A stretch of 64,000 bases of DNA from Gemmatimonadota bacterium. GTDB taxonomy: Bacteria > Gemmatimonadota > Gemmatimonadetes > Gemmatimonadales > Gemmatimonadaceae. The notes below the pieces were generated by a model. It was not told where the DNA came from and searched no databases. It saw only the letters and a list, made by a program, of their open reading frames with translations. Position numbers and translations under genes: made by a program. The stretch lies in contig JBKOYV010000160.1 of NCBI GenBank assembly GCA_046725585.1, positions 2,742-66,741 on the forward strand. Reading direction: 5' to 3'. Below are positions 1 to 64,000 of the stretch, in pieces; within the stretch, counting starts at the first letter, position 1; each line of letters begins with the position of its first letter.

Positions 1-1
1 G

Positions 2-1342
2 TCGGCCGCCGAGCGAGCGGCGGACCGAACCAACCGACTCCGTCGCACGGCCGAAGCGCTCTCGGGCGCACTGACGCCAATCGCCGTTGCGCGCGTCATC
101 GTCTCGGAGGGTTTGCCGGCGCTCAGCGCCACCGCGAGCGAGGTGGCAGTCCTCACGGGCGATGGCATCGCGCTGGATCTCATGGCGGTGAGCGGGGTGC
201 CGGCCGAGGTCGCCGACGCGTGGCGCCGGTTCCCGGTGACGAGTCGCGTGCCGCTGGCGGACGCGGTGCGCACGACCGAGCCGGTTCTGCTCGACTCGCC
301 GGACGAAATCGCGCGTCGCTATTCGGACCTGGCGCCGGTCCTCGAGCGCGTGAACGTCCGCGCGATGATCGTGACGCCGATGATCGTCGATGGGAGGCCA
401 CTCGGCTCGCTGAGCTTCAGCTTCAGCGGGCCCCGAACGTTCGACGACAGTGATGTCACGTTCACCCGCGCGCTCGGGCAACAGTGCGCGCAGGCGCTCG
501 AGCGGGCGCGACTTTTCGCGGCCGAGCAATCCGCGAGGGCTGACGCCGAGGCGGCGAACCGCGCCAAGACGGAGTTTCTGGCGATGATGTCCCACGAGCT
601 CCGGACGCCACTCAACGCCATTGCCGGCTATGCCGAGCTGATGGAGCTCGGCATCAGCGGTCCGGTGAGCGACATGCAGCGGGAGCAGCTCGGCCGCATT
701 CGGCGGAGCCAGCGCCATCTCCTGGGGATCATCGAGGACCTGCTGGACCTCTCGCGGCTCGAGCACGGGATGCCGGCGGACATCGAGCTGGGTCCGGTGC
801 CGGTCCACGACACGTTAGGCAACCTCGAGCCACTGATCGCGCCGCAGCTCAAGGCGCGGAACCTGACCTACATCTATAACCCCGCCGAGGGTGGCCTCAT
901 CGCGTACGGGAACCGGGCGCGCATCGAGCAGATTGTGCTCAACCTGCTGTCGAACGCCATCAAGTACACGGCGCCCGGTGGGCGCGTGGGACTTTCCAGC
1001 AGCCTCCACGCCGGGCGAGTAGAGATTCGCGTCAGCGACACCGGCCACGGGATTCCGCGCGAGAAGCTCGATTCGATCTTCGAGCCGTTCACCCGACTGG
1101 AGATGGACCTCACGCGGACGACGGAGGGTACCGGGCTTGGTCTCGCCATCAGCCGCCACCTTGCGCGGGCGATGATGGGCGACCTCAGCGCCCGCAGCGA
1201 GGTGGGGCGGGGATCGATCTTCACGCTCACGCTGCCCGTAAACGCCCCGGTGATCGCCGACCAGCCGCCGGCGGTCACGCCCGCGGCGTCCATGGTGGCC
1301 GTGCCTCGCGACGCCATCCCGCTCCACCGAGTCCGGATGTAG
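2..1342 (+). CDS. GAF-domain sensor histidine kinase, probably 5'-truncated by the window edge
   Basis: ORF 113..1342. The frame stays open back to nt 2, and the upstream residues (..ALSGALTPIAVARVIVSEG..) read like the start of the GAF fold. H-box MSHELRTPLNAI; HATPase boxes NLLSNAIKYT, DTGHGI, GTGLGLAI. Confidence 0.85.
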   Translation, partial: SAAERAADRTNRLRRTAEALSGALTPIAVARVIVSEGLPALSATASEVAVLTGDGIALDLMAVSGVPAEVADAWRRFPVTSRVPLADAVRTTEPVLLDSPDEIARRYSDLAPVLERVNVRAMIVTPMIVDGRPLGSLSFSFSGPRTFDDSDVTFTRALGQQCAQALERARLFAAEQSARADAEAANRAKTEFLAMMSHELRTPLNAIAGYAELMELGISGPVSDMQREQLGRIRRSQRHLLGIIEDLLDLSRLEHGMPADIELGPVPVHDTLGNLEPLIAPQLKARNLTYIYNPAEGGLIAYGNRARIEQIVLNLLSNAIKYTAPGGRVGLSSSLHAGRVEIRVSDTGHGIPREKLDSIFEPFTRLEMDLTRTTEGTGLGLAISRHLARAMMGDLSARSEVGRGSIFTLTLPVNAPVIADQPPAVTPAASMVAVPRDAIPLHRVRM

Positions 1343-1508
1343 GTCGGCGCGCGCGGGCGGTTCCGACTGCAGCCCCGGTTCGGCTCCACAGTTTTCTGAC
1401 AGAGCAGCCCTCGGCGCCGATGAGGCTCCGACGCCAGTCGCGCTATACATTGACAGGTGTCCCGCCGTCGCCGCGTGGGCGGGGCGACGACTTCAACCAT
1501 TTCGGTCC

Positions 1509-3233
1509 GTGCTGGCAGGGATGCGCCGCTCGCGCGCGACCATCGCGGTAGTGGTGTGCACGTTCACCGCCGCGTCGGTCGCCGCCTATCAGGTCTACAA
1601 CGCCGTGTGCGCGCAGGAGTCGGCCGCGCAGCGCGCGTTGTTATCGCACGCGCGGTTTGCGGCGTGGACGTTCACGCGCGAGGCCAACGCGGAGCTCGAG
1701 CGCGCCGCGCGGCGTGTTCTCGCGCCCACGGTGGCGCTTGCGGCGGAGCGCGGCGCCGCCTCGGCGCCGTCAGTGCTCGTGGCGGAGGGCATCCGAGCTG
1801 CCCGCCGCTGTGCGTGCGTGGCGGTGCCGGATGTTCGGTTCACGTTCGCGGTCGATCTGTCGCGCGGCGACGTCGTCGTCGGAGCGGTGGGTGACGAAAT
1901 GCCCGAGACCCCGAGCGGCGACATCGAACAGAGCGTCATTCGGACGGTTCGTGACGGTATCGCCGCCGGGGCGGTGACGGGCGACCCGATCATCACTCGG
2001 ATGCCGAGCGACGGCACGATCGCGATTGCCTACATGCTCGCCGGACAGACGGGCGTGCACCGGGGCAACAAGCCGCACAGGGCCTATGGCTACGCCTTCG
2101 ATGTGGGATCTGCGGGGCGTGCGGTGTTCCCCGCGGTTCTGGCATCGCGTGCGCTCCTTCCGCCCATGGGGCCGGCGCCAGTACCCGTGGACTCTACACT
2201 CACGCTCTCGGTGACCGGGCCGGATGAGCGCATCGTCTATCGCTCGGCGGCGACGCGCGGGCTCCGCCCGGCGGCGACGTTAGGCATGACCGGCGCCTTC
2301 GACGGGTTCGCCGTGCGGGTGGCGATGCGTCCCGCGTTCGCGTCCCGCGTGGCCGTAGGCAACTGGACGTGGAACCGGTCGCAGTTCGTGCTCGGGTTCA
2401 TCACGCTGAGTGCCGGGCTCGTGATCGTGTCACTGCTGCAACTGCACCGCGAGCGGCAGCTCGCGCGCGTAAAGAGCGAGCTGGTGTCGGGCGTGTCGCA
2501 CGAGCTTCGGACGCCGCTGGCGCAGATTCGGATGTTCGCCGAGATGCTGCGGCTCGGCTGGGTGCGCAGCGACGACGAGCGACAGCGGTCGGTCGCCATC
2601 ATCGACCAGGAGGCACGGCGGCTGGCGCATCTCGTCGAGAACATTTTGCAGTTCTCGAGAGCCGAGCGATCGGCGACGCGTGTGTCACTCGAGCCGCTGG
2701 AGCTGGCGGCGCTGGTGGACGAGGTGGTGGAGAGCTTCGCGCCGCTGGCGGGCTCGCGCGGCGTGACCGTCCGCACGACGCACTCCGGTCATGCCGTGGC
2801 GCTCGCGGACCGTGACGCGCTACGGCAGGTCCTGCTCAACCTCCTGGACAATGCGGTGAAGTATGGCCCCGCGGGCCAGACGGTCACGGCGGGAACGCGC
2901 GTGCTCGGGGACGGGCGTGTGCAGCTCTGGGTGGATGATCAGGGGACCGGGATCCCGGCGCGCGACAAGGCACGCATCTGGGAGCCGTTCCGCCGACTCG
3001 ACCGGGCGGTGGAGGCCGGAATCTCGGGCAACGGCATTGGACTCGCTGTCGTGCGCGAGCTGGCGGCCGCGCAGGCCGGGACGGTGACGGTGCACGACGC
3101 GGCGGGTGGAGGCGCGAGCTTCGTGGTGACGCTGCAGGCGGCGACGCAGGTGTCGCTGGCCCACTCGGAGGCCAGGCCTAACGCGTCCGAGGCGTTCGAC
3201 GCGGCGCCCCACCGCGAGCACTCGCTGCCATGA
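1509..3233 (+). CDS. membrane sensor histidine kinase
   Basis: 574-aa ORF with a TM segment FVLGFITLSAGLVIVSLLQL, H-box VSHELRTPLAQI, and ATPase boxes LLDNAVKYG, DQGTGIP, GNGIGLAVV. The stop overlaps the next start (ATGA). Confidence 0.85.
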   Translation: MLAGMRRSRATIAVVVCTFTAASVAAYQVYNAVCAQESAAQRALLSHARFAAWTFTREANAELERAARRVLAPTVALAAERGAASAPSVLVAEGIRAARRCACVAVPDVRFTFAVDLSRGDVVVGAVGDEMPETPSGDIEQSVIRTVRDGIAAGAVTGDPIITRMPSDGTIAIAYMLAGQTGVHRGNKPHRAYGYAFDVGSAGRAVFPAVLASRALLPPMGPAPVPVDSTLTLSVTGPDERIVYRSAATRGLRPAATLGMTGAFDGFAVRVAMRPAFASRVAVGNWTWNRSQFVLGFITLSAGLVIVSLLQLHRERQLARVKSELVSGVSHELRTPLAQIRMFAEMLRLGWVRSDDERQRSVAIIDQEARRLAHLVENILQFSRAERSATRVSLEPLELAALVDEVVESFAPLAGSRGVTVRTTHSGHAVALADRDALRQVLLNLLDNAVKYGPAGQTVTAGTRVLGDGRVQLWVDDQGTGIPARDKARIWEPFRRLDRAVEAGISGNGIGLAVVRELAAAQAGTVTVHDAAGGGASFVVTLQAATQVSLAHSEARPNASEAFDAAPHREHSLP

Positions 3234-4003: not shown

Positions 4004-4192
4004 TCGTCAGGCATCCAGTCCCGCGTTTGGGACATGTCCCATCCCGGGGCTGGGATTTCGTGCGGATGCCGGCGAGTCTTCCCGATTCATAACTCGCGAC
4101 AGCTCTAGGCGTTAGGCAGCGACGCCGCGGTGGCATTGGGCTGGCCTAGGGTTTCGGTTCGCGGTTGTCGCGGCCGCGCGTCCGTTGCGCGC

Positions 4193-4229: not shown

Positions 4230-6650
4230 ATGCTCCGGTACGCGCTCCGAACACTCGCCAAGAATCCGGCGTGGACGCTCGCCGCCGTTGCGTGTCTCGC
4301 GATCGGCATTGGCGCAAACACGACCGTGTACACGGCCATGCGGGCGATTGCGATCGAGCCGGTCCCCACGCCCAACAGCGACCGGCTCGTCATGATGTCG
4401 GAGGTGAAGCCACGGGATCCGGACGACCCCGATTTCGATCAGCTCGCGCCGGCCAATCTCGTCGATTGGATGCAGCAGACGCGCACGCTCGAGCATATTG
4501 CGGCGTTCTCGTGGTGGGACGTCAACATCACGGGCATCAACGACCCCGAGCGCGTCACGGGGTTTCGCGTGACGCCCGAGTTCTTCCGCACGCTCGACGA
4601 GCGTCCCGTGCTCGGGCGTGCGTTCACGGAGGAGGAAGGACACACCGGCAACACCGATCGCGTCATTCTCAGTCATCCGCTGTGGATGCGGCGGTTCGGC
4701 GGTGATCCTGGCGTGGTTGGTCGGACGGTGCAGCTCAACGGAGCGCCGCACACGATCGTCGGTGTAATGGGCGAGGACTTCATCTTCCCGCCGGGCGCCG
4801 AGCTGTGGAAGGCGTTCGCGCTCGAAGGTGCGGTTGCGGCCGACCGCGACGGACGCTGGTTGAACGCGATCGCGCGGTTGCGGCCCACGGCGACGCTCAC
4901 CGAGGCCCGCGCGGAGGCCCGCGCCATCGCTCGGCGGCTCGAGCTGCAGTATCCCGACATGAACGCGAAGTGGGGAATGAAGGTCGAGCCCGCACAGGTG
5001 TTCTACGGACGCCATCCGCGGCCGTACATGGTCGTGATGCTGGCGTCGGTGGCGCTGGTGCTGCTCATCGGGTGCGCGAACGTGGCGAACCTGCTGCTGG
5101 CACGCGCCACCACACGCGGGCGGGAGCTCGCCGTGCGGGTCGCGTTAGGCGCACGGCGCAGCGATCTCGTCCGGCAGATGCTCGCCGAGAGCATGGTGAT
5201 CGCGCTCATTGGCGGCGCGCTCGGCGCGTTGCTCGCGCTCTGGGGCGTGAGGCTCATGCGAAACACGCTGCCAGCGGACCTGGTGCGCTTCAACCCGGGG
5301 TGGACGCGCATAACGATCAACGGCCACGCGCTTCTGTTCACCATGGCCGTGTCGATCGCTACCGCGGTGGTGGTGGGTCTCGTTCCGGCGCTCATTGCGT
5401 CTCGCGCCGATCCGCAGCAGGCGCTGAAGGAAAGTGGGCGGACCGCGAGCGGCGCCGCCGGGCGTTACCGGCTCCGGAGCGCGCTGGTGGTTGGTGAGGT
5501 CGCGCTCGCGCTGATGCTGCTGTTCGGTACCGGCCTCATGGTGCGGAGCTTCATCGGGCTGATCGAAACGGACCAGGGGTACACCGTGGAGAAGGCGCTC
5601 ACCATGCAGCTCACGCTGCCGAGCGCGCGGTACAAGACCGACGGTGACCGCACGAGGTTCTATACGGCCCTCATCGATCGCGTGCGTGAGCTGCCGGGGG
5701 TTCGCGCGGCCAGCCTGATCAACGAGCTCCCGCCCTCATGGAATGACGTCTCTACACGCTTCATCCTGGAGGGCGAGCCAAAGCCACAACGTGGCGATCC
5801 GGCGCATCAGGAGCGCCAGCACCTGGTCTGGGATGGGTACTTCGCGGCCATGGACATTCCCGTTAGGCGCGGCCGGGACTTCGATCGCCATGATGACACG
5901 ACGAGTCCATCGGTGGCGATCGTCAGCGAGGCGTTCGCCCGGAAGTACTGGCCAGGTCAGGACGCGATCGGCAAGCGAATCTCGGGGCTCGCGGACTCGA
6001 TGCACCTGACGACGGTGGTTGGTGTCGTCGGGGATGTGCGGCACAACCCGAACACCGGACGGGCGCTGCTCGCCCCGGTGGTCTACTACCCGGCGACCCA
6101 GGGTCCGTGGGACACCATGACGCTCCTCGTGCGGACAGCCGGGAGCCCTCTCTCGATCACCGCGGATGTGCAGCGAGCGATTGGGTCGCTCGACCAGACG
6201 CTCGCTCCGGGCGAGGTCAAGACCCTCGAGCGGATGCTGTCGTCGTCGCTGTCGCCGCAGCGCATCACGGCCGGGATGCTGAGCGTGTTCGCGGGCATCG
6301 CGCTGCTGCTGGCGGTGATCGGCATCTACGGCGTCATGTCGTACACCGTAAACCAGCGCACGCACGAGATCGGAATCCGCATGGCGCTGGGCGCGCAGCG
6401 CGCGGACGTGGTGAGGCGTGTCCTGCGTCAGGGCGTGGCGTTGGCCGCGTTAGGTATCACGATCGGGGCGTTCGGGTCGTTCGCAATGACGCGAGGAATG
6501 GCGACCCTGCTTCACGAGGTGAGTCCAACGGATCCGCTCACGTTCGTGGCGGTGGCGGCGATGCTGGCGGCGGTGGCACTGCTGGGGAGCTGGCTCCCGG
6601 CGCAGCGCGCGGCGGCAGTCGATCCGGTTGTGGCGTTGAGGGACTCGTGA
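4230..6650 (+). CDS. ADOP-family (MacB-like periplasmic core + duplicated FtsX) permease
   Basis: ORF 4185..6650 trimmed to MLRYALRTLAKNP.. because the upstream 15 codons only translate the heptad array. Two FtsX modules (..GCANVANLLLARA.., ..RTHEIGIRMALGA..) and C-terminal ..PAQRAAAVDPVVALR. Confidence 0.85.
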   Translation: MLRYALRTLAKNPAWTLAAVACLAIGIGANTTVYTAMRAIAIEPVPTPNSDRLVMMSEVKPRDPDDPDFDQLAPANLVDWMQQTRTLEHIAAFSWWDVNITGINDPERVTGFRVTPEFFRTLDERPVLGRAFTEEEGHTGNTDRVILSHPLWMRRFGGDPGVVGRTVQLNGAPHTIVGVMGEDFIFPPGAELWKAFALEGAVAADRDGRWLNAIARLRPTATLTEARAEARAIARRLELQYPDMNAKWGMKVEPAQVFYGRHPRPYMVVMLASVALVLLIGCANVANLLLARATTRGRELAVRVALGARRSDLVRQMLAESMVIALIGGALGALLALWGVRLMRNTLPADLVRFNPGWTRITINGHALLFTMAVSIATAVVVGLVPALIASRADPQQALKESGRTASGAAGRYRLRSALVVGEVALALMLLFGTGLMVRSFIGLIETDQGYTVEKALTMQLTLPSARYKTDGDRTRFYTALIDRVRELPGVRAASLINELPPSWNDVSTRFILEGEPKPQRGDPAHQERQHLVWDGYFAAMDIPVRRGRDFDRHDDTTSPSVAIVSEAFARKYWPGQDAIGKRISGLADSMHLTTVVGVVGDVRHNPNTGRALLAPVVYYPATQGPWDTMTLLVRTAGSPLSITADVQRAIGSLDQTLAPGEVKTLERMLSSSLSPQRITAGMLSVFAGIALLLAVIGIYGVMSYTVNQRTHEIGIRMALGAQRADVVRRVLRQGVALAALGITIGAFGSFAMTRGMATLLHEVSPTDPLTFVAVAAMLAAVALLGSWLPAQRAAAVDPVVALRDS

Positions 6651-6722: not shown

Positions 6723-9122
6723 ATGATCTCTGAACTCCGATTGGCCAGTCGAACCCTCGCGCGCTCGCGTGGCTTCGCCATTGCGGCTGTCGGTGTCCTC
6801 GCGCTCGGCATCGGCGCGGCGGCAACCGTGTTCAGTGTGGTCGACGCGATACTCATCCGGCCGCTGTCGTATCCAGCGGCCGACCGGTTGGCGGTCATCT
6901 ACGCGACGCAGCCATCTCGCGGCGTGAGGCGTGGTGGCGCGTCGTTCCCCGACCTCAACGACTGGCGCGCCCAGCTTCCCGCGTTCGACGGCATCTTTGC
7001 GTACCTCGGCTCCAACGTGTCGCTCTCGGGAGCTGGCGAGGCCGAGCGCGTGCGAGCCGCGCTCGTGTCGGAGGACTTCTTCCACGTCATGGGCGCATCC
7101 CCCGCGTCAGGCCGATCGTTCCGCGGGGACGAGTGGAAGCCAGGTGGTCCGAAGGTCGCGATCCTGAGCGACGCGCTCTGGCGCAGGCGATTCGGCGCCG
7201 ACCAGCGTATTCTCGGACGCACGGCAATCGTCGACGGCGCGAGCTACGAGATCGTGGGCGTGATGCCGCGCGGTTTCGATTTCCCCGACGTCGAGGTGTG
7301 GGCGCCGTTCACCTTCCCGCCTGACGTCGCGACGCGGGAGGAGCGCGCGCTGGGAGCCGTGGCCCGGCTCCGAGACGGAGCGTCGATGCGCGACGCGCAG
7401 GTGCAGCTCGACGCGTTCAACACCCGATTGGAACGCGCCTTTCCGGCCACGAACGCCGGCTGGCAGGCGAGGATCGTCTCGCTGCACGATGACCTCGCCG
7501 CGGACTTCCGCTCAGGGTTGTATCTGCTCGCTGCGACGGTCGTGCTCGTTTTGCTGATCACCTGCGCGAACGTCGCGAATCTCATGCTCGCCCGCACGAA
7601 CGACCGGCGTCGAGAGCTGGCCGTGCGAATTGCGTTAGGCGGCAGCCGACGCCAGATCGCGCGCCAGACCCTGGCCGAGAGCGCGATCATCGCCACTGCG
7701 GGCGCCGGCCTCGGAATGCTCATCGCCCTCTGGGGCGCCCGACTCGTTCGGGTCGTGATTCCGGTCGAGATCCCGTCATGGATCCGTCTCAACGTGGGCC
7801 CGCGGACTGTTCTGTTTGCGTTAGGCGTTGCCGGGGCGCTGGCACTGGTCCTGAGCCTCGCGGCGAGCGCGCACATCACGGATCGATCGGTGGCTGACGC
7901 CCTTCGCGACGGTAGCCGCGCCGGGGCAGGCGCGCACCGCGCAAGATCGCGGCGCGCCCTCGTGGTCTCGGAGATCGCGGTGTCGCTCGCGCTGCTCGTC
8001 GGAGCGCTGCTCCTGACGCGCAGCTTTGCGCGGATGGCGCGTGCCGATCCCGGCTTCGACGCGACCGGCGTGCTGACGCTTCGCATCTCGCTGCCGGCCT
8101 CTCGCTACGCCAGCGACTCGTCCGTCGCGCGGTTCCACGAGGACGTCAACGCCGAACTGCGCGCGCTGCCGGGGGTCTCGTCGAGCGCGAGCGTCCTCAT
8201 GGCGCCGTTGAGCGACGAAAACATCTTCACGGCCATTACGATCGAGGGACAACCTGCGCCACCCGGGCAGGCGATGCACGCACTCCGACAAGCCATCATG
8301 CCGGACTACTTCTCGGTGCTGCGGATTCCACTGGTCGCTGGCCGCGCGTTCACGGCGGCCGATGGCGCGTCGGCACCACCGGTCGCGATCGTCACCGAGG
8401 CACTTGTGCGCGACCGATGGCCGAACGAGAGCGCCGTGGGTCGACGGTTCAAGCTCGGGCAGGCGGACTCGAAGGAAGCGTGGATCACGGTGGTGGGCAT
8501 AGCGCGCGACATCAAGCAGTTCGGCGTCCGCGAGGGCACCGCCGAAGGGATCTATCTGCCCATCGCCCAGTCGCCGCCGCGGACGGCAACGATCGTGCTT
8601 CGCGTAACGGGCGAGCCTACCGCGCTCGCGCCGTTGGCACGGAGGGTAATCCACGCACTGGACCCCGAGCTCGCGGTCTTCGGCGTGGAGTCATTGCCGC
8701 AGGTCCTCGCGCGATCGATCTGGCAACCGAGGCTGCAGGCGATCCTCGTGGGCACGTTCGCGGTCATTTCGCTGGTGCTCGCCGCCGTTGGCGTTTATAG
8801 CGTGGTCTCGTACGTGGTCGCCCAGCGGACGCGTGAGATCGGCGTACGCATGGCGCTCGGCGCTCAACAGTCGTCGGTGTTGCGGCTCGTCATCGCACAG
8901 GGCGTGCGCTTAACGCTCGCCGGCATCGCGCTCGGTCTCATCGGGTCGCTCGCGGCGGCGCGACTGCTCCAGGGACTGCTGTTCGGCGTTGGCGCGCGCG
9001 ACCCCGTGACGTTCGCGGGGGTTCCGATTCTCCTGTTTCTCGTCACGGTGCTCGCGTGTTACCTGCCCGCGCGTCGAGCGGCGAGCGTCGACCCGGCGGT
9101 TGCGCTCCGCGCCGATCAGTAA
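6723..9122 (+). CDS. ADOP-family permease
   Basis: 799 aa with the same architecture as 4230..6650 (MISELRLASRTLARSRGF.., ..TCANVANLMLART.., ..RTREIGVRMALGA.., ..PARRAASVDPAVALR). Confidence 0.9.
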   Translation: MISELRLASRTLARSRGFAIAAVGVLALGIGAAATVFSVVDAILIRPLSYPAADRLAVIYATQPSRGVRRGGASFPDLNDWRAQLPAFDGIFAYLGSNVSLSGAGEAERVRAALVSEDFFHVMGASPASGRSFRGDEWKPGGPKVAILSDALWRRRFGADQRILGRTAIVDGASYEIVGVMPRGFDFPDVEVWAPFTFPPDVATREERALGAVARLRDGASMRDAQVQLDAFNTRLERAFPATNAGWQARIVSLHDDLAADFRSGLYLLAATVVLVLLITCANVANLMLARTNDRRRELAVRIALGGSRRQIARQTLAESAIIATAGAGLGMLIALWGARLVRVVIPVEIPSWIRLNVGPRTVLFALGVAGALALVLSLAASAHITDRSVADALRDGSRAGAGAHRARSRRALVVSEIAVSLALLVGALLLTRSFARMARADPGFDATGVLTLRISLPASRYASDSSVARFHEDVNAELRALPGVSSSASVLMAPLSDENIFTAITIEGQPAPPGQAMHALRQAIMPDYFSVLRIPLVAGRAFTAADGASAPPVAIVTEALVRDRWPNESAVGRRFKLGQADSKEAWITVVGIARDIKQFGVREGTAEGIYLPIAQSPPRTATIVLRVTGEPTALAPLARRVIHALDPELAVFGVESLPQVLARSIWQPRLQAILVGTFAVISLVLAAVGVYSVVSYVVAQRTREIGVRMALGAQQSSVLRLVIAQGVRLTLAGIALGLIGSLAAARLLQGLLFGVGARDPVTFAGVPILLFLVTVLACYLPARRAASVDPAVALRADQ

Positions 9123-52561: not shown

Positions 52562-52644
52562 GCGTGCCACTGCCCACTGCACACCGCCCGCTGCGTGTCC
52601 AAGGTCGACCGATCACTCGCCACTCCTACCCTGGTCGTCGTCTG

Positions 52645-56734: not shown

Positions 56735-57844
56735 ATGACGAGCTCGCGGGTGCCGGAGCGGCGAACGATCCTCGTGACGGGCGGGACCGGTACGTTAGGC
56801 AGGGAGCTGGTCGCGCGTTTCGCCCGCGCAGATGACGCTTCGGTCGTCGTGCTCGCGCGCGGTACGGCGCATCCGCGTCCCGCCGTGCTGCCGCCAGGTG
56901 TCCGCGCGCTCGCGAGCGACGTGCGGCATGGTTCCACGCTCGGGCTCAGTGCGTCCGACCGCGCGATGCTTCGCGAGAGCGTCACCGACATTGTACACTG
57001 TGCGGCCGACACGACGTTCAACCGCCCGCTCGCCGACGCGCGCGCAACCAACGTGACGGGCACCGAGGCGGTCCTCGCGTTCGCAAAGGAGTGTCGGCGG
57101 CTCCGGCGGCTTGCCTGCTTCAGTACGGTGTACGTCGCGGGGCGCACGACGGGCTGCTTCACGGAGCACGATGTCGGCGGCGCCGACGGGTTCGTGAACA
57201 GCTACGAGCAGTCGAAGGCGGAAATGGAAGCGGTGGTGCGCGACGCGATGCGCCGGCTGCCGATCGCCATCTACCGCCTGAGCACGATCATTGGCGACGC
57301 TCGTACCGGCGAGGTCTCCGGGTTCAACGCGATCCATCACGCCCTGAGACTGCTGTATCAGGGCCTTGCCCCGATGGTGCCGGGTCGGGAAACCGGCCTC
57401 GTGGACCTCATCCCCGTGGATTTCGCTGCCGACGCGAGCCACCATCTCTTCGAGCGCGAGTTCACTGCCGGCGCGACGTATCATCTGTGTGCCGGCGCGG
57501 CGCATTCTGCCACGCTGGGAACCCTGCTGGATGCGACGATGGCGGCGTTCGAGCGATACCGCCCGGCGTGGCGCAAGCGCAGCATCGCCCGGCCCGCAAT
57601 CGTGGAGTTGGAGACGTACGAGCTGTTCGTACGCTCGGTGGAGGAGGCGGGGAATCAGGTGCTGCTGCAGGCGACGCGGGCCGTGCAGGCGTTCGCCTAC
57701 CAGCTCGCGTATCCCAAGGTGTTCGATGCTCGGTACGCCGAGGGCGTGCTCGCGCCGGCAGGCATCGCGGCGCCGAATGTGCTCGACTATTACGACGGGA
57801 TCGTGCGGTGGTGTATCGAAACAAACTGGGGGGCACAGGCATGA
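56735..57844 (+). CDS. NAD(P)-dependent SDR of the thioester-reductase / fatty-acyl reductase type
   Basis: ..ILVTGGTGTLGRELV.. Rossmann motif, catalytic ..NSYEQSK.. (YxxxK), about 370 aa as in stand-alone TR domains. Confidence 0.75.
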   Translation: MTSSRVPERRTILVTGGTGTLGRELVARFARADDASVVVLARGTAHPRPAVLPPGVRALASDVRHGSTLGLSASDRAMLRESVTDIVHCAADTTFNRPLADARATNVTGTEAVLAFAKECRRLRRLACFSTVYVAGRTTGCFTEHDVGGADGFVNSYEQSKAEMEAVVRDAMRRLPIAIYRLSTIIGDARTGEVSGFNAIHHALRLLYQGLAPMVPGRETGLVDLIPVDFAADASHHLFEREFTAGATYHLCAGAAHSATLGTLLDATMAAFERYRPAWRKRSIARPAIVELETYELFVRSVEEAGNQVLLQATRAVQAFAYQLAYPKVFDARYAEGVLAPAGIAAPNVLDYYDGIVRWCIETNWGAQA

Positions 57845-59034
57845 CGGGCTCGTCGCCGAAGGCGCTGCCGACCCCCGCTGAGCTCGAGCGGCAGCTCGCG
57901 CACTTCGTCAACGTCACGCTGCTGGGCGGAGGCAACGCGGTCGGGCGCGACACGCGCCTGTTCGAGGATGGGTACATGAACTCGCTCCGCATCCTCGATC
58001 TGATCGCGATGGTGGAGAAAACGTTAGGCGCGCGCATACCCGACCGCTCGGTTCGCCTCGCGAACTTCCGTACGATCGCCACCATCGTGCAGGTGTTTCA
58101 CCCGGACGCCGGCGTTGTCGCCGCCTCGGCCCCCGATCGGCTGTTCGAGCGCCGCGCTGACCGATCACGCTTTGCCTCGCCAGTCGAACTGCTTCGACAC
58201 CGGGGTGACGTCAGAGTCACCGGTGCCGGTCGCGTCGCCCTGGCTGGCCTCGCGCTCCAGGTCCTCGAGGCGGTCGATGACACCGTCGTGCGTTGGGCGG
58301 AATCCCTCGGCGCTTCCGATCACCGCTACCCGAGCCTGATCGACACGGCCATCCTCCGGCGTGCCGGGCAGACGCCATCCACGATGGTCATCCCGAGCGC
58401 GGATGTCATCCCGAGCGCTGATGACGAGGTTATGCTCGCCCCCGCCGTCTGCTACCACGCCTATCCCGAGTGGGCCGGCAAGGCCATCGGAGACACCCCC
58501 ACGGTCCTCACCGCGCGCGGCCACTGTTACCGCTACGAGGGCGGCCACCACGTCCCGCTGGAACGGCTGTGGGAGTTCACGATGCGCGAGATCATCGTGA
58601 TGGGAACACGCCAGCAGGTCGAAGACGTCCGGCAGTCACTCGTCAGGCAGGTCGCGACTCTCGTCGACACGCTGAAGCTGGACGCCTCGATCGAAACCGC
58701 CACCGACCCGTTCTTCACGGCCGGTGATGAGGGCCGCCGCCTCATGCAGCAGGCCGGCGCGCTCAAGTACGAGCTCCGCCTCGCCGTCGACGCGACGGGC
58801 CGCACGATAGCCGCCGCGTCGTTCAACCATCACCACGACTTCTTCGGCACGCGCTTCGGCATTCGCCTCGCCGACGACACCCCCGCGCACAGCGGATGCG
58901 TCGCGTTCGGGCTCGAGCGGTGGATGCTTGCGCTGCTCGCGCAGCACGGTGTTGAGCGAGACGCGTGGCCTAACGCGGTGCGAGCGTGGCTCGATGAGGC
59001 GCTCCACCGACCGGCTTGGGGATCCGGTGCGTGA
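57841..59034 (+). CDS. carrier-protein domain fused to a class-II aaRS-like (SerRS-type) amino acid:[carrier protein] ligase
   Basis: N-terminal PP-binding-like ..FEDGYMNSLRILDLIAMVEKTLG... C-terminal motif-2-like ..GHCYRYEGGHHVPLERLWEFTMREIIVMG.., motif-3-like ..HSGCVAFGLERWMLALL.. and Cys residues (..APAVCYHAY..) as in Zn-dependent atypical SerRS homologues. No tRNA-binding arm. ATGA overlap with the SDR. Confidence 0.7.
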   Translation: MTGSSPKALPTPAELERQLAHFVNVTLLGGGNAVGRDTRLFEDGYMNSLRILDLIAMVEKTLGARIPDRSVRLANFRTIATIVQVFHPDAGVVAASAPDRLFERRADRSRFASPVELLRHRGDVRVTGAGRVALAGLALQVLEAVDDTVVRWAESLGASDHRYPSLIDTAILRRAGQTPSTMVIPSADVIPSADDEVMLAPAVCYHAYPEWAGKAIGDTPTVLTARGHCYRYEGGHHVPLERLWEFTMREIIVMGTRQQVEDVRQSLVRQVATLVDTLKLDASIETATDPFFTAGDEGRRLMQQAGALKYELRLAVDATGRTIAAASFNHHHDFFGTRFGIRLADDTPAHSGCVAFGLERWMLALLAQHGVERDAWPNAVRAWLDEALHRPAWGSGA

Positions 59035-59918: not shown

Positions 59919-59921
59919 CAA

Positions 59922-60653
59922 GTGATCTACGAATCCCACCTGCGCGCCACCGAGGAAAACGCGTGGCCCCTCGACTCCTCCATCGCGTGGGATGCGATCG
60001 ACCTCGACGTCGCGCGCAGCGAGCGCGATCTACACCAGGCACTGCACGACGCGGCGCTCATCGAAGGGTACCTGCCGGTGTACGCCGCGCGGCTCATGCA
60101 GCTCCTCTGGGACGACGTCGATGCGACCGCCGTGCTCAGCATGGAGCTCTACGAGGGACTCAAGCACTTCACCGCGCTCGCCCGGTACCTCGACCGCGTG
60201 GGCTATCAACGCGAGGAGGTCTCCGAGGCGACGCTCGTGGCCGCGCGAGCGCGCGCGCTCGCGATCGCGTACGACAGGGCCGACCTCATCGCGCACCTCA
60301 CGAACTTCATGTGCTCGGAGCTCTTCGCCGCGTACTTCTTCCTGCGTATTGCCCGCCGCACTAACGAGCCGGTGCTGCGAGAGCTGTTAGGCTACATGTC
60401 GCGCGATGAGTTCCGTCACAGCGCAAGCGCCGGCGACGTCCTCAAGAAGCGCATCGATCGCGATCCCGGGATCGCTGCCCAGGTCCTCGCGGCCGCCGAG
60501 CGGTTTCGCCACTATGGGAGCGACGTCGTTCAGGTCCCCGTCGCCGAGGAGAACGACTTCGAGGCGATCATGGCCATGAACCGAAAGGTCCGCCTGCTGT
60601 GCGGCCTCGCGCCGACCGAGCATCTCAAGGAGTCCGTCCCCGGTGGAGATTAG
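59922..60653 (+). CDS. ferritin-like / acyl-ACP-desaturase-like putative diiron protein
   Basis: 243 aa, all-helical. ..MELYEGLKHF.. and ..SRDEFRHS.. (DExRH-type ligand motif). Confidence 0.55.
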   Translation: MIYESHLRATEENAWPLDSSIAWDAIDLDVARSERDLHQALHDAALIEGYLPVYAARLMQLLWDDVDATAVLSMELYEGLKHFTALARYLDRVGYQREEVSEATLVAARARALAIAYDRADLIAHLTNFMCSELFAAYFFLRIARRTNEPVLRELLGYMSRDEFRHSASAGDVLKKRIDRDPGIAAQVLAAAERFRHYGSDVVQVPVAEENDFEAIMAMNRKVRLLCGLAPTEHLKESVPGGD

Positions 60654-61497
60654 CGAAAACGATCTCTGGATCCTCAGCTACTACCGCGAGTCGGAGCTCG
60701 CGGGAAGTCTCGTCATGGGCCGCCTCGCGCGGGAAACGGACGACGACGACCTGCGTGTGCACCTCACCGAGCATTGCGCGGAAGAGGCCCACCACGCGTG
60801 GCTGTGGACGGAGACGATCCTCAAGGTGGGCGGTACCCCGAAGCGCGTGGCCGAGACGTACCAGACGCGCTACTACGCCGAGATCGGGATGCCGGCGAGC
60901 CTGCTCGAGATTCTTACACTCACACAAGTTTTCGAGCGGCGCGTAATACGGCATTTCCGCGCCCACCTCAAGTGGCCTGACGTGCACCCCGCGGTGGCCG
61001 AAACGCTCCGCCGCATGATCGAGGACGAGGTCGGCCACATCAGCTGGGTAAAGGACCGCCTCGATCGATACGCGGCCGAGAAGGGGGAAGCGATCGTGGC
61101 CGAAACGATGCGCCGCTTCACCGAAGTGGATGAACGCGTCTACGAAGCGGCGATGCGCTACCGGGACAACGCACGCGAGCTGCTCGACCCCGCGCTCCGT
61201 GGGAACGGACAGGCGCGCCCCCAGCCGACGTCGATCACGGCACCGTCGGCCTCACGCGCGACCACGAGCAATGCCGAGCTCCGCCACCTCGTGGCGAAGT
61301 CGCTCGGCGTGAACGACGACATCGTGCTCGATACGTCGTCGCTCCGCGACCTGGGTGTCAACTCGCTCGACCTCGTGGTGCTCGTGATGTCGATCGAGGA
61401 GCATTTCCACGTCGAGTTCGAGGCGAGCGACCTGGAGCGACTGCGGACGTTCGCCGACCTGGCGCGCCGCGTGACCGAGCTGACCGCGGTTCGTTAG
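60643..61497 (+). CDS. diiron four-helix-bundle (ferritin-like) oxygenase domain fused to a C-terminal acyl-carrier domain
   Basis: E..ExxH x2 ligand pattern (..YRESELAG.., ..CAEEAHH.., ..VFERRV.., ..IEDEVGH..). A linker is followed by ..LRDLGVNSLDLVVLVMSIEEHF.. (PP-binding). The stop TAG lies inside a CGTTAGGC copy. Confidence 0.7.
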   Translation: MEISENDLWILSYYRESELAGSLVMGRLARETDDDDLRVHLTEHCAEEAHHAWLWTETILKVGGTPKRVAETYQTRYYAEIGMPASLLEILTLTQVFERRVIRHFRAHLKWPDVHPAVAETLRRMIEDEVGHISWVKDRLDRYAAEKGEAIVAETMRRFTEVDERVYEAAMRYRDNARELLDPALRGNGQARPQPTSITAPSASRATTSNAELRHLVAKSLGVNDDIVLDTSSLRDLGVNSLDLVVLVMSIEEHFHVEFEASDLERLRTFADLARRVTELTAVR

Positions 61498-61513
61498 GCA
61501 GGCCTGACGGCGG

Positions 61514-61786
61514 CTATTTCTTCGTGATGCCCGTCGGCTCGGTATGCTCGACCACGATGGTATAGTCCGACGCGAGCGCGGCAATGCCGGCGATGGCTGC
61601 CCAGAACGGGAGCAGCGCGGCACCCAGGAGGCCGGCGGTGAGCGGAATGTCCAGGATCGTGCGACCCTGCGCGTTCTTGATGACCACGCGCCTAACGGTG
61701 CCCTTGCGAATGATCTCTTTCAGCTTGGCCTTGAGGTTGGCGCCGCTGACCTTGAACTCTTCGGTGCGTGGGCCGGTGGTGGACAT
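61514..61786 (-). CDS. DUF4342-domain protein
   Basis: Trimmed to MSTTGPRTEEFKVSGANLKAKLKEIIRKGTVRRVVIKNAQGRTILDIPLT.. with a C-terminal hydrophobic segment. Confidence 0.65.
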   Translation of the reverse strand: MSTTGPRTEEFKVSGANLKAKLKEIIRKGTVRRVVIKNAQGRTILDIPLTAGLLGAALLPFWAAIAGIAALASDYTIVVEHTEPTGITKK

Positions 61787-62578: not shown

Positions 62579-63406
62579 TTACCCCCGATGCCAAGCCGTT
62601 GGAGTAACCCCGGTCAGCTCTCGAAATTCATCGACCAGATGTGACTGGTCGTAGTACCCCACCTCCAGAGCCAGCGCGCTCCAGTTGATTGCCTCACCAG
62701 CCGGCAACGCGCGCGCCCGATCGATCACGCGGCCCAACCGCACCACCCGCGCGAACGTCTTCGGCGACACCCCCACGAGCTGCGAGAACCGCCGTGCCAG
62801 ATGCTGGCGCGTGACGCCTAACGCCGGAGCCAGCCGGGTGATGCCGAGACTTCCTCCGGCCGCGACGATCCGGCGTATCGCCTCGTCCACGTCGTACTGT
62901 GCCGACACAGCACTCGGCGACACGCGAGCCGCGAGCACCCGTTCGAGTGCCCGCACCCGCTCCACCGCGCCGGCGCTCACCGCGAGCGCGTCACGAACCT
63001 CGCCGGCATCGAGCCACAGCGCATCGAGCGGCACGCGCAGGTCCGTGAGCTCGTTCGCCGGGACGCTCAGGAACGCCGCGGCCTTCCCCGGGTGAAACCG
63101 CACGCCCACGAAGCACTCCGGCGATGCCCCGGGCTCGAGAACGAGCGCGCGCGTCATCGTCCCGACAGCCATCGCCGATTCCGGTTCGTCCGCCTGCCCC
63201 GAAAACCCGAGCACCACGTCGATGCACCCATCCGGCAGCACGCGGTGTACTGATGGGCTCGCGGGCTCGCGACCCACTGCCGGGTCGCGCGTCCAGAAGC
63301 ATTCCACGAACGGGCGAAGCTTCTCGGACGGCGCGTATTCGCGATAGCTCGCCGGCGTGAGCGGCTGCGGGCCGGGCGGCGGCGGTCCTCCGGCGGGGGC
63401 GGTCAT
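62579..63406 (-). CDS. AraC-family transcriptional regulator
   Basis: C-terminal double HTH (..ITRLAPALGVTRQHLARRFSQLVGVSPKTFARVVRL.., ..LALEVGYYDQSHLVDEFRELTGVTP..). Confidence 0.85.
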   Translation of the reverse strand: MTAPAGGPPPPGPQPLTPASYREYAPSEKLRPFVECFWTRDPAVGREPASPSVHRVLPDGCIDVVLGFSGQADEPESAMAVGTMTRALVLEPGASPECFVGVRFHPGKAAAFLSVPANELTDLRVPLDALWLDAGEVRDALAVSAGAVERVRALERVLAARVSPSAVSAQYDVDEAIRRIVAAGGSLGITRLAPALGVTRQHLARRFSQLVGVSPKTFARVVRLGRVIDRARALPAGEAINWSALALEVGYYDQSHLVDEFRELTGVTPTAWHRG

Positions 63407-63592
63407 CGATCACAGCCTACCGGGCGGAAACCGGCGGCTCAAGGGGGTCGCCCGTTTCGTGGAGTGCACTGCTACGTCATTTCACCGGGGCTCCTACGTA
63501 CGGTGGCCGATCCACGTCCCGCGAGGTCCGCGGTATCGTCACCAGGAACCCGCGTCATGCCTGGCCGCACCGGTTCTTCGTCGGAGACGCCA

Positions 63593-64000
63593 ATGCACCA
63601 CACATCCATCGTGCGATCGATCGCCCGGCTCGCGACCACCCTGCTCGCGGAGCTTGGAGCCATCGCGGGCACCACGGGGATCGTCGCCGCACAGCACCCG
63701 GCGCCGACACCGAAGACCGTGACCATCCGCGTCGCCGACTCCACGCAGGTGCAGGTGATTCGCCTGAGGGACGGCTCGTCGATCGTCGGTCGCGTCACGG
63801 AAATCGGCACCGACACGATCCGCTTCGCCGCCACGGGTGGCACGCTCTCGCTCACCCGCGCCGACATCGTCGGCGTGCGCGACGTCGCGAAGTCCTCGAT
63901 GCGTGACGGCGAGGTCTGGCCCGCCAACCCTAACGCGACCCGACTGTTCTTCGCGCCGACCGGTCGGATGCTCGCTCAGGGCGAGGGCTACTTCAACGAC
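63593..64000 (+). CDS. hypothetical secreted protein, 3'-truncated by the window edge
   Basis: Not in the ORF track because there is no stop. ATG 63593, MHHTSIVRSIARLATTLLAELGAIAGTTGIVAAQ (signal-like), then beta-rich sequence in frame through nt 64000. The 151-aa minus-strand ORF there looks like a shadow. Confidence 0.45.
   Translation, partial: MHHTSIVRSIARLATTLLAELGAIAGTTGIVAAQHPAPTPKTVTIRVADSTQVQVIRLRDGSSIVGRVTEIGTDTIRFAATGGTLSLTRADIVGVRDVAKSSMRDGEVWPANPNATRLFFAPTGRMLAQGEGYFND

Follow-up and report, generated by a model that had tools for sequence, protein, structure and literature searches.

The closest described counterparts of the DNA word reported here are the DNA uptake sequences (DUS; GCCGTCTGAA and its dialects) of the Neisseriaceae, the uptake signal sequences (USS; AAGTGCGGT and ACAAGCGGT) of the Pasteurellaceae, and the octamer HIP1 (‘highly iterated palindrome’; GCGATCGC) of cyanobacteria. 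By late 2025, sequence-specific uptake words had been documented in two families, the Neisseriaceae and the Pasteurellaceae (10.1101/2025.10.24.684340). The subject of this analysis is the octamer CGTTAGGC, with its 7-mer core GTTAGGC, in a 64,000-bp stretch of DNA from a Gemmatimonadota bacterium (contig JBKOYV010000160.1; the whole stretch, 67.3% G+C, is hereafter termed ‘the window’). It appears to be a new addition to the hyper-abundant, strand-symmetric genomic words, and its function is argued below from its pattern of occurrence. No prior description of the octamer, nor of uptake sequences or competence in Gemmatimonadota, was found in the literature that was searched.

DUS are short and non-palindromic, occur about once per kb on both strands without polarity, are found family-wide, arise by point mutation inside genes, and are accompanied by enriched one-off variants and by some inverted pairs. 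In all of these respects CGTTAGGC is like them (the inverted pairs having been seen in Gemmatirosa). The two words are nevertheless unrelated in sequence and in phylum, and differ in length (8-9 bp for the Gemmatimonadota word, 10-12 bp for DUS). DUS also lie mostly outside genes (about 35% are within open reading frames [ORFs]; PMC2817400) and often in terminators (10.1101/2025.10.24.684340), whereas 87% of the copies of CGTTAGGC are genic and a single copy out of 60 sits in a hairpin. Dialects like those of DUS were not seen among the lineages sampled, and a counterpart of the DUS receptor ComP would be putative.

USS likewise occur about once per kb at relatively even spacing and are sparser in atypical DNA (PMC7811141); they lie mostly in coding sequence (65% in H. 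influenzae), with strong frame preferences and with raised frequencies of the peptides that they encode (PMC2817400). These properties are shared by CGTTAGGC, with three differences. The A/T-rich segments that flank USS aid uptake, whereas the flanks of CGTTAGGC are uninformative; the USS frame follows preferred codons (PMC2817400), whereas the favoured frame of CGTTAGGC uses the rarest leucine codon, TTA; and USS are under-represented in coding DNA (PMC7811141), which CGTTAGGC is not. HIP1 resembles the present word as a hyper-abundant octamer found about once per gene and conserved clade-wide; it is quasi-periodic, maintained by selection, and has recently been proposed as an uptake sequence. 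However, HIP1 is palindromic and is recognised by two methyltransferases, whereas CGTTAGGC is asymmetric and is not among the methylated motifs of Gemmatirosa. Chi (for example GCTGGTGG) and the polar KOPS and AIMS words (FtsK-orienting polar sequences and architecture-imparting sequences) are also over-represented octamers inside genes, but Chi is enriched about 7-fold (PMC1939737) and co-oriented with replication, while CGTTAGGC is enriched 50-60-fold and its orientation follows the gene strand alone.

Abundance of the octamer in the window and across the family

The original prediction, made by reading the window by eye, had reported 33 forward and 27 reverse copies of the 7-mer, about 52 of them extending to the 8-mer, and an exact recount returned the same numbers: 33 copies of GTTAGGC and 27 of GCCTAAC, or 60 in total (0.94 per kb), of which 52 extend to CGTTAGGC or its reverse complement GCCTAACG (28 and 24 by strand). 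All but two of the predicted coordinates were exact; 61494 should read 61493, and 47815 should read 47806. The base composition that had been assumed (about 70% G+C) was somewhat high, yet the chance expectations drawn from it were about right, an order-0 model giving 2.4 copies of the 8-mer. Models of orders 1 to 3 give 1.0-2.7 copies, and 100 dinucleotide-preserving shuffles of the window contained a mean of 1.06 and a maximum of 4, as against the 52 observed.

The strictest comparison relied on a codon-aware null, in which synonymous codons were permuted within each gene such that both the protein and the codon usage (including the TTA codons supplied by the motif itself) were kept. Under that null, 1.8 +/- 1.3 copies (maximum 6) are expected in coding sequence, where 46 were observed. 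By contrast, Markov models of order 4 and order 5 ‘expect’ 28 and 49 copies of CGTTAGGC, because its sub-words of five to seven letters occur almost solely inside the motif; the maximal-order Markov comparison that had been proposed was run and is for this reason blind to the word, and the evidence for the excess comes from the low-order, shuffled and codon-aware nulls, all of which display it. Despite its three A/T positions the octamer shares the ninth rank among the commonest 8-mers of the window. The excess amounts to 50-60-fold and survives the codon-aware null, and the hyper-abundance of CGTTAGGC is thus confirmed as real and beyond chance.

When the 60 copies are aligned, a C precedes the 7-mer (position -1) in 52 and a purine follows it (position +1) in 46, and nothing else is conserved; an alignment of 806 copies from a Gemmatirosa replicon gives the same picture, with an information content of about zero elsewhere. 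The word is non-palindromic and, its flanks being unrelated, belongs neither to a longer repeat (both as originally claimed) nor to a mobile element. Copies of a repetitive extragenic palindrome or of a miniature inverted-repeat transposable element are likewise not indicated, given flanks without information beyond positions -1 and +1 and 52 of the 60 copies within genes. The eight copies that stop at the 7-mer are informative in another way: they follow codons that could not be made to end in CG and still encode their amino acid, an indication that it is the 8-mer, and not the 7-mer, that is the true target.

Nor is the word confined to the window. The closest protein relatives of the window are metagenome sequences, at 85% identity, and those that carry a name are Gemmatimonadaceae. 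A scan of species genomes led to six loci in metagenome-assembled genomes (MAGs) of that family, every one of which carries the word at 0.3-0.9 copies per kb; CGTTAGGC is the top-scoring 8-mer in all of the MAG loci examined except the shortest, and a distant locus (L006, 45% identity in the query protein) has 19 copies in 21 kb. The word also turns up, at 0.4-2.0 per kb, in each of the 28 syntenic metagenome loci that are 4 kb or longer. In the two megaplasmids of a cultured species, Gemmatirosa kalamazoonensis KBS708 (73% G+C; sequences from PLSDB), CGTTAGGC is the most over-represented 8-mer of each, and the whole of plasmid 2 (NZ_CP007130.1, 1.04 Mb) contains 701 copies where 11.7 are expected, a 60-fold excess. 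The 8-mer was not found in the control stretches, from one acidobacterial and one Gloeobacter plasmid, counts of the word being 0-1 in these controls. A self-BLAST of Gemmatirosa plasmid 2 for copies of insertion sequences revealed almost no repeats. The word is neither peculiar to the window nor a mobile repeat. The sampling throughout is of the family Gemmatimonadaceae, by way of its MAG loci, the metagenome loci and the two Gemmatirosa megaplasmids.

Some local features of Gemmatirosa plasmid 2 may be recorded here. Short tandem arrays of the octamer, with units of 12 and 15 bp in 3-4 copies, occur at about 108118-108160 and 697547-697600; there are a few perfect inverted octamer pairs 10-13 bp apart; and positions 220550, 445822 and 755113 are also listed for such arrays or pairs. 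Neither the tandem arrays nor the 10-13-bp inverted pairs were seen in the window. In the plasmid record, bases 1-2051 are the same as 1037950-1040000, which double-counts two copies of the motif and is probably an untrimmed overlap of a circular assembly.

Placement, spacing and conservation of the copies

The window was found to contain 43 genes, by our own calls from ORFs supported by their G+C content at third codon positions (GC3). They encode many MacB/FtsX permeases, histidine kinases, a sigma-54 activator, a tricorn protease, a TonB-dependent receptor, an AlkZ-like glycosylase and the products of a lipid/carrier-protein cluster. Within or between these genes every copy was placed, and the claim that genes of every kind carry the word, in either orientation, was borne out. 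Fifty-two of the 60 copies (87%) are in genes and eight lie between genes or at gene ends, the density being equal in coding (0.94 per kb) and intergenic (0.95 per kb) sequence. The genic copies are divided between the sense strand (31) and the antisense strand (21), and occupy all four of the reading frames that are free of stops (the motif has an internal TAG when read forward and an internal TAA in reverse). The frame nCG-TTA-GGC, for Leu-Gly, accounts for 29; the antisense frames G-CCT-AAC-G (Pro-Asn) and GC-CTA-ACG (Leu-Thr) for 14 and 7, respectively; and GTT-AGG-C (Val-Arg) for 2. In four of the 43 genes the TAG or TAA of the motif itself serves as the stop codon (14875-14877, 31207-31209, 52559-52561 and 61495-61497), in a window where TGA ends 22 genes, TAA 11 and TAG 10.

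The word imposes the rarest codons. With GC3 at about 0.85, TTA is the rarest leucine codon of the window, and 29 of its 43 occurrences lie within the word, as do 14 of 83 CCT and 7 of 31 CTA codons. The word spells 35% of all [S/T/P/A]-Leu-Gly tripeptides and 40% of Pro-Asn dipeptides, and Pro-Asn is 1.39-fold commoner than composition predicts. The word acts on DNA, not through protein, and overrides codon usage. Explanations at the level of RNA or translation (for example a bldA-like control through TTA codons) fail, since antisense copies make up 21 of the 52 genic ones and eight further copies are non-genic. Searches of the window against Rfam and for tRNAs gave no match, segments centred on the motif fold no better than controls, and a hairpin-like pair involves one copy of the 60 (at 61492, with its partner GCCTGACG at 61502-61509).

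The copies are also more evenly spaced than chance allows. Gaps between successive copies in the window average 1,051 bp with a coefficient of variation (CV) of 0.58, compared to 0.97 for random placement; the smallest gap is 151 bp and the largest 2,480 bp, where about 4,900 bp would be expected, and none of 5,000 simulations was as regular. For the related loci pooled, the CV of the gaps is 0.73 against an expected 0.92 (0 of 2,000 simulations). In Gemmatirosa, copies tallied in 5-kb stretches show under-dispersion (mean 3.88, variance 2.83), and the motif-free gaps of more than 5 kb number 12, as compared to 16.7 under an exponential distribution; ordinary host-type proteins are encoded in them. 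In the window, the copies look as though one were required in every stretch of 1-2 kb. In Gemmatirosa, regions of higher local G+C carry the word more densely (rho 0.28, P = 4e-5) even though it is more A/T-rich than the genome, which is the opposite of a composition effect.

No replication polarity accompanies this distribution. The comparison of orientation with replichore, which the original prediction had put forward as a check, was made on the complete 1.04-Mb Gemmatirosa replicon with gene strand controlled for: 335 copies are forward and 366 reverse, their orientation does not switch along the molecule, and sense copies outnumber antisense copies about two to one, at a fraction of 66-67% in both halves. 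The bias towards the sense strand arises because the Leu-Gly frame is the most tolerant. The window (33 to 27) is likewise without an orientation switch. By this lack of polarity the word is set apart from Chi, KOPS and further polar octamers, and the priming of Okazaki fragments and other replication-linked signals are rejected as explanations.

The proposal that the positions of the copies should be compared with their flanks in related genomes was followed for the copies at 44-64 kb of the window, which were placed on syntenic relatives via protein alignments. In the closest relative (L007, 87.5% nucleotide identity) nine of nine copies are kept, where 42% of background 7-mers are (P = 4e-4). 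A second relative (L004) keeps 8 of 12 against a background of 0.33, and the distant locus L006 keeps 5 of 7 against 0.20. Two lineages of lower density keep copies at the background level. Over 49 loci, which are phylogenetically related and therefore do not count as independent events, the perfect 7-mer is present at 160 of 267 locus-sites (0.60), compared to 0.275 for other 7-mers in the same genes. Copy positions are thus kept about twice as often as background 7-mers, and at the three best-kept sites the word is found in 10 of 10, 12 of 12 and 14 of 15 loci.

The mode by which individual copies appear and disappear can be read from the same alignments. At site 60386, the CTG-TTA-GGC of close relatives becomes CTG-CTG-GGT, CTC-CTG-GGC or CTT-CTG-GGG in distant ones; where the word is missing, the peptide is often kept with common codons, which indicates that copies come and go by point substitutions, largely synonymous. 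One-off variants that keep the A/T core are in turn enriched about 10-fold in the window (TGTTAGGC, 5 against 0.3 expected; CGTTATGC, 6 against 0.6; CGTTAGGT, 4 against 0.5), as such variants also are for USS (PMC1939737). The copies originate by point substitution and are maintained.

Possible readers of the word

The reading tentatively favoured here, at a probability a little under even, is that CGTTAGGC is a genome-wide ‘self’ word of the Gemmatimonadaceae akin to DUS and USS, read by the uptake machinery of natural transformation. The word would be recognised on double-stranded DNA, whichever way it faces, by a protein whose site is non-palindromic, spans about 8-9 bp and shows a weak preference for a following purine. 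The most likely setting of that protein would be the DNA-uptake machinery, which would make the word a functional analogue of those of the Neisseriaceae and Pasteurellaceae, with an unrelated sequence. Fragments of environmental DNA that carry the word would be bound and imported preferentially, and their recombination would lead word-bearing alleles to replace word-less ones. Molecular drive, selection for DNA of the own family, or both would then raise the word to a copy per 1-2 kb or so wherever coding tolerates it, new copies arising by point, mostly synonymous, substitutions. Both the uptake receptor as reader and natural transformability itself are deduced from the pattern of the copies.

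Much of that pattern is what the described uptake words would lead one to anticipate. The word is present at about one copy per kb, far above expectation, in both orientations and without polarity, and is found family-wide with negative controls. USS show an excess in the same range (438 observed, 3 expected), far beyond that of Chi in E. coli (1008 against 151, about 7-fold; PMC1939737). USS of H. influenzae are about 1,000 bp apart, and their relatively even distribution has been described as an outcome to be expected of molecular drive through uptake (PMC7811141); even spacing is what would follow if the benefit were saturated by a single copy per fragment. Both USS and DUS prefer certain frames and raise the frequency of the peptides that they encode (PMC2817400), and a density that rises with G+C fits a slower accumulation of copies in atypical, possibly newer DNA, as for USS and DUS (PMC7811141). 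The presence of suitable machinery in Gemmatimonadota is plausible on the basis of the literature, in which soil Gemmatimonadetes MAGs are described as having homologues of ComEC (PF03772) and homologous recombination (PMC7305173 Table S3), and non-marine Gemmatimonadota as having type IV pilus genes (PMC10581226).

Several observations weigh on the other side. ComEC and type IV pili are also common among bacteria without uptake sequences, and the ComEC homologues of soil Gemmatimonadetes are annotated as ‘two domain’ forms (PMC7305173). Competence genes were not found among the genes of the window, and the literature searched contained neither an uptake or transformation experiment nor documented competence for any member of the Gemmatimonadaceae. 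About half of DUS and USS lie in terminator hairpins, and both are under-represented in coding sequence (10.1101/2025.10.24.684340; PMC7811141), whereas the present word has its one hairpin-like copy and a coding density equal to the intergenic one; such inverted-pair or terminator placement and coding depletion are a common habit of uptake words rather than a strict requirement. Spacing in Gemmatirosa is only weakly regular at the level of single gaps (CV 0.88), and the data from a cultured species consist of two secondary replicons of one species, one of them whole. Finally, even spacing and positional conservation are equally expected of a word that is bound by a protein inside the cell.

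In sum, the likening of the word to DUS, USS or HIP1 rather than to Chi or KOPS, as originally proposed, stands with respect to its excess, density, occurrence on both strands, lack of polarity, family-wide spread, conserved positions and even spacing; it falls short in the missing hairpin and coding-depletion habits, in the palindromy of HIP1, and in the lack of a corresponding methylated motif. Since CGTTAGGC is unrelated to GCCGTCTGAA, AAGTGCGGT and ACAAGCGGT, it could at most represent a new and independent type. That the Gemmatimonadaceae possess an uptake specificity of their own, as a third, independently evolved system with no forerunner outside the Proteobacteria unless the still-debated HIP1 is counted, is a possibility put forward with rather more doubt than confidence.

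If the word is indeed an uptake signal, a third and unrelated example would show that such genome architecture evolves repeatedly, in this case in an abundant soil phylum, and transformation biased towards DNA of the own family would shape the evolution of a widespread, mostly uncultured soil family. Uptake specificity would then have rewritten coding sequences, with the word spelling two thirds of all TTA codons and 35-40% of some peptides, and would offer a direct handle on gene exchange in Gemmatimonadota. The idea can be tested, as cultured strains with complete genomes exist (G. kalamazoonensis KBS708 and Gemmatimonas spp.), and addition of the word to transforming DNA may improve genetic tools. 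The word further provides a simple taxonomic marker for the binning of Gemmatimonadaceae contigs, and accounts for an odd use of rare codons (TTA, CCT and CTA) in high-G+C genomes.

Foremost among the alternatives, though rather unlikely, is an intracellular protein-binding word for chromosome maintenance, of which selection would keep about one site per 1-2 kb. It could be a signal for recombination or repair that lacks polarity (attenuating a RecBCD/AddAB-type nuclease as Chi does, at a density that serves both directions), a mark by which a defence or SMC-type system tells self DNA, or a site bound by a nucleoid protein with sequence specificity. The even spacing, the kept positions and the equal density in genes and spacers would all fit a regular coverage of the chromosome, and as relayed in PMC1939737, Karlin et al. 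took the even spacing of USS likewise. The word is present on megaplasmids too, and the tandem arrays of Gemmatirosa, with periods of 11-15 bp (about one helical turn), resemble cooperative protein-binding arrays. However, an excess of 50-60-fold for an exact 8-mer is not known for any Chi, KOPS or nucleoid-protein site, and the known Chi and KOPS sequences are polar with respect to replication while CGTTAGGC is not. The lower density in low-G+C segments would be unexpected if every stretch needs a site, and no candidate binding protein is known. Even with an intracellular reader, an evenly spaced, exact 8-mer in about half of the genes would constitute a new type of chromosome-wide signal.

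A bias of sequence-specific repair or modification, along the lines suggested for HIP1 and very-short-patch repair, appears improbable. Mismatches within the word would be mended by an enzyme specific for it, perhaps together with a methyltransferase, such that copies seldom decay and accumulate passively. This would agree with the roughly two-fold better retention of perfect copies than of background 7-mers, with the family-wide occurrence of the word and with the modest enrichment of one-off variants, and two methylases are linked with HIP1, likewise a hyper-abundant octamer. But the bias predicts a Poisson placement among permissive sites, as opposed to the even spacing and missing short gaps that are observed; it does not predict a lower density in low-G+C DNA; and the word, unlike HIP1, is non-palindromic. 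The methylome of KBS708, determined by SMRT (single-molecule real-time) sequencing, consists of three N6-methyladenine (m6A) motifs, RGATCY, ATGCAC and CCAGN7TCA, each more than 99% modified (PMC3974934). The inspection of methylation calls that had been suggested for the word was thereby answered in the negative for Gemmatirosa, as no published SMRT motif resembles CGTTAGGC, which argues against a methylation-coupled mechanism of the HIP1 type and excludes m6A, and probably N4-methylcytosine, at the word in that species. Methylation to 5-methylcytosine, which SMRT sequencing detects poorly, may still occur at the word.

The 7-mer is identical to the canonical core site of integrons (GTTAGGC fits the attC/attI core GTTRRRY, and GCCTAAC the inverse core), and the sole match for GCCTAAC in the literature is an integron paper; an origin as recombination sites is nonetheless refuted by geometry, and the match in sequence is regarded as coincidence. 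An attC site needs GCCTAAC followed by GTTAGGC 50-150 bp away, with internal pairing, and the window contains no such pair, its closest copies of opposite orientation being 197 bp apart and in the wrong order. The window copies are without a paired inverse core, attC structure or cassette organisation, and 87% of them are inside ordinary genes, in frame. Along 1.04 Mb of Gemmatirosa, pairs within 120 bp in the order of attC number 9, versus 11, 12 and 23 in the other orientations, and are thus not in excess. The 7-mer also contains TTAGGC, the nematode telomere unit, in what appears to be a further coincidence.

Finally, although the commonest frame of the word encodes the common dipeptide Leu-Gly, the chance that the excess merely follows from composition, codon usage, a common peptide motif or the copies of one mobile repeat is negligible, this reading being refuted by the codon-aware null (1.8 expected, 46 observed), the use of the rarest leucine codon, the occupation of four frames, both gene strands and spacers, the unrelated flanks, and relatives that encode the same peptides without the word.

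Coordinates of the copies and neighbouring features

Table 1. The 60 copies in the window. 8-mer, CGTTAGGC on the strand given; 7-mer, GTTAGGC with the preceding base in brackets; CDS, coding sequence. Codons are those of the gene, and the last column gives the related loci in which the copy is kept.
Form	Position	Strand	Placement	Codons and peptide	Kept in related loci
8-mer	813..820	+	CDS 113-1342(+), sense	GAC-ACG-TTA-GGC-AAC = DTLGN	
8-mer	2278..2285	+	CDS 1509-3233(+), sense	GCG-ACG-TTA-GGC-ATG = ATLGM	
8-mer	3176..3183	-	CDS 1509-3233(+), antisense	GCC-AGG-CCT-AAC-GCG = ARPNA	
8-mer	4110..4117	+	intergenic, upstream of CDS 4185-6650		
8-mer	5143..5150	+	CDS 4185-6650(+), sense	GTC-GCG-TTA-GGC-GCA = VALGA	
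8-mer	5861..5868	+	CDS 4185-6650(+), sense	CCC-GTT-AGG-CGC-GGC = PVRRG	
8-mer	7633..7640	+	CDS 6723-9122(+), sense	ATT-GCG-TTA-GGC-GGC = IALGG	
8-mer	7819..7826	+	CDS 6723-9122(+), sense	TTT-GCG-TTA-GGC-GTT = FALGV	
8-mer	9594..9601	+	CDS 9176-11575(+), sense	GAG-GCG-TTA-GGC-AGA = EALGR	
8-mer	10542..10549	-	CDS 9176-11575(+), antisense	GCG-CGC-CTA-ACG-CTG = ARLTL	
8-mer	12548..12555	-	CDS 12096-13472(+), antisense	CTC-GCG-CCT-AAC-GTG = LAPNV	
8-mer	13417..13424	+	CDS 12096-13472(+), sense	GAG-GCG-TTA-GGC-ATG = EALGM	
7-mer (T at -1)	13683..13689	+	CDS 13462-14877(+), sense	GTC-GTG-TTA-GGC-GCA = VVLGA	
8-mer	13850..13857	+	CDS 13462-14877(+), sense	AAC-GCG-TTA-GGC-AAC = NALGN	
8-mer	14042..14049	+	CDS 13462-14877(+), sense	GAC-ACG-TTA-GGC-CTG = DTLGL	
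8-mer	14872..14879	-	TAA = stop of CDS 13462-14877(+); overlaps end of ORF 14842-15396(-)		
8-mer	16813..16820	+	CDS 16401-18752(+), sense	AAC-CCG-TTA-GGC-TCG = NPLGS	
7-mer (G at -1)	17756..17762	+	CDS 16401-18752(+), sense	CTG-CGG-TTA-GGC-GCG = LRLGA	
8-mer	18331..18338	-	CDS 16401-18752(+), antisense	GGA-AGC-CTA-ACG-ATG = GSLTM	
8-mer	18821..18828	-	intergenic, between convergent CDS 16401-18752(+) and 19122-19865(-)		
8-mer	19112..19119	-	intergenic, just downstream of CDS 19122-19865(-)		
8-mer	21066..21073	+	CDS 20841-21530(-), antisense	CGT-CGC-CTA-ACG-TCT = RRLTS	
8-mer	21834..21841	-	CDS 21561-22478(-), sense	ACC-GCG-TTA-GGC-GGC = TALGG	
7-mer (T at -1)	22164..22170	-	CDS 21561-22478(-), sense	CTG-CTG-TTA-GGC-GGC = LLLGG	
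8-mer	23821..23828	+	CDS 23279-24772(-), antisense	GCG-CTG-CCT-AAC-GAT = ALPND	
8-mer	26124..26131	+	CDS 25516-27405(-), antisense	TGG-TCG-CCT-AAC-GGG = WSPNG	
8-mer	28400..28407	+	CDS 27982-30732(+), sense	CTG-GCG-TTA-GGC-ATC = LALGI	
8-mer	30120..30127	-	CDS 27982-30732(+), antisense	GTC-GTG-CCT-AAC-GTT = VVPNV	
8-mer	30347..30354	-	CDS 27982-30732(+), antisense	CGG-CGC-CTA-ACG-AAC = RRLTN	
8-mer	31205..31212	-	TAG = stop of CDS 31207-32484(-)		
8-mer	31693..31700	-	CDS 31207-32484(-), sense	GTG-CCG-TTA-GGC-GCC = VPLGA	
7-mer (G at -1)	33456..33462	+	CDS 33114-33767(-), antisense	GCG-CCG-CCT-AAC-CAC = APPNH	
7-mer (G at -1)	34020..34026	+	intergenic, between CDS 33114-33767(-) and 34327-37164(-)		
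8-mer	34170..34177	+	intergenic, downstream of CDS 34327-37164(-)		
8-mer	35016..35023	+	CDS 34327-37164(-), antisense	TTC-TGG-CCT-AAC-GAG = FWPNE	
8-mer	35734..35741	-	CDS 34327-37164(-), sense	GCG-GCG-TTA-GGC-GCC = AALGA	
8-mer	36667..36674	-	CDS 34327-37164(-), sense	ATC-GCG-TTA-GGC-ATC = IALGI	
7-mer (T at -1)	38450..38456	-	CDS 37481-40939(-), sense	GGC-TTG-TTA-GGC-GCC = GLLGA	
8-mer	39157..39164	+	CDS 37481-40939(-), antisense	TCG-ATG-CCT-AAC-GCC = SMPNA	
8-mer	39718..39725	+	CDS 37481-40939(-), antisense	TGG-TCG-CCT-AAC-GGG = WSPNG	
8-mer	40525..40532	+	CDS 37481-40939(-), antisense	AAC-GCG-CCT-AAC-GCC = NAPNA	
8-mer	41955..41962	-	CDS 41132-42625(+), antisense	CCG-CGC-CTA-ACG-TGG = PRLTW	
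8-mer	43432..43439	+	CDS 42638-43849(-), antisense	GGT-GAG-CCT-AAC-GTC = GEPNV	
7-mer (T at -1)	44325..44331	-	intergenic, between CDS 42638-43849(-) and 44783-46240(-)		
8-mer	45971..45978	-	CDS 44783-46240(-), sense	TTG-TCG-TTA-GGC-GAG = LSLGE	
8-mer	47806..47813	-	CDS 46836-49226(+), antisense	CTC-GGC-CTA-ACG-ATG = LGLTM	5/8
8-mer	48293..48300	-	CDS 46836-49226(+), antisense	TGG-AAG-CCT-AAC-GAC = WKPND	6/9
8-mer	48862..48869	+	CDS 46836-49226(+), sense	TGG-GCG-TTA-GGC-AGC = WALGS	10/10
8-mer	49594..49601	-	CDS 49229-50404(+), antisense	GTA-CAG-CCT-AAC-GTC = VQPNV	6/10
8-mer	50787..50794	-	CDS 50426-52561(+), antisense	AAG-CGC-CTA-ACG-GGT = KRLTG	12/12
8-mer	51816..51823	+	CDS 50426-52561(+), sense	GAC-ACG-TTA-GGC-CTG = DTLGL	7/13
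8-mer	52556..52563	+	TAG = stop of CDS 50426-52561(+); overlaps start region of ORF 52537-53136(+)		
8-mer	54314..54321	-	CDS 53972-54520(-), sense	TTG-TCG-TTA-GGC-GTG = LSLGV	13/18
8-mer	56793..56800	+	CDS 56735-57844(+), sense	GGT-ACG-TTA-GGC-AGG = GTLGR	24/29
8-mer	58022..58029	+	CDS 57841-59034(+), sense	AAA-ACG-TTA-GGC-GCG = KTLGA	perfect in 5/34; one-off GTTAGGT in 11
8-mer	58968..58975	-	CDS 57841-59034(+), antisense	GCG-TGG-CCT-AAC-GCG = AWPNA	19/46 locus alignments
7-mer (T at -1)	60386..60392	+	CDS 59922-60653(+), sense	GAG-CTG-TTA-GGC-TAC = ELLGY	22/36
8-mer	61492..61499	+	TAG = stop of CDS 60643-61497(+); with GCCTGACG, the window's only hairpin-like pair		
8-mer	61690..61697	-	CDS 61514-61861(-), sense	ACC-GTT-AGG-CGC-GTG = TVRRV	14/23
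8-mer	62816..62823	-	CDS 62579-63406(-), sense	CCG-GCG-TTA-GGC-GTC = PALGV	14/15

Two of the genes listed in the table may be described further with respect to the copies that they hold or adjoin. The gene 19122-19865 (-) encodes a LexA-like S24 peptidase and has two octamers (18821 and 19112) in the 370-bp spacer downstream of it, where it converges with its neighbour. The ORF 25516-27405 (-) encodes 629 aa with no Pfam match, its GC3 (0.73) is below that of its neighbours, and it holds one copy, at 26124.

The MacB_PCD/FtsX-type ABC permeases of the window are five paralogues, encoded at 4185-6650, 6723-9122, 9176-11575 and 27982-30732 on the forward strand and at 34327-37164 on the reverse strand, three of them in tandem. 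Their best plasmid-borne relatives, in Gemmatirosa, are about 40% identical and are found at 29-32 places per megaplasmid, in what looks like a massively expanded family.

A cluster at 55634-61497 (+) has the same gene order in three related loci (L007, L010 and L012). It encodes a KAS-III-like enzyme, an NAD-dependent reductase/epimerase, a methyltransferase, a 243-aa protein without a Pfam match, an aminoacyl-tRNA-ligase-like protein (an amino acid/acyl-carrier-protein ligase according to the sources) and a ferritin/AurF-like protein fused to a PP-binding domain; its relatives also carry a phosphopantetheinyl transferase upstream. The cluster probably makes an aminoacylated lipid or small molecule. 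In the related locus L004 (a segment of DASUGD010000400.1) there is a local repeat, unrelated to the octamer, that is rich in GGGATGAGG / CCTCATCCC and brings several 7-8-mers to 10-14 copies in 15 kb.

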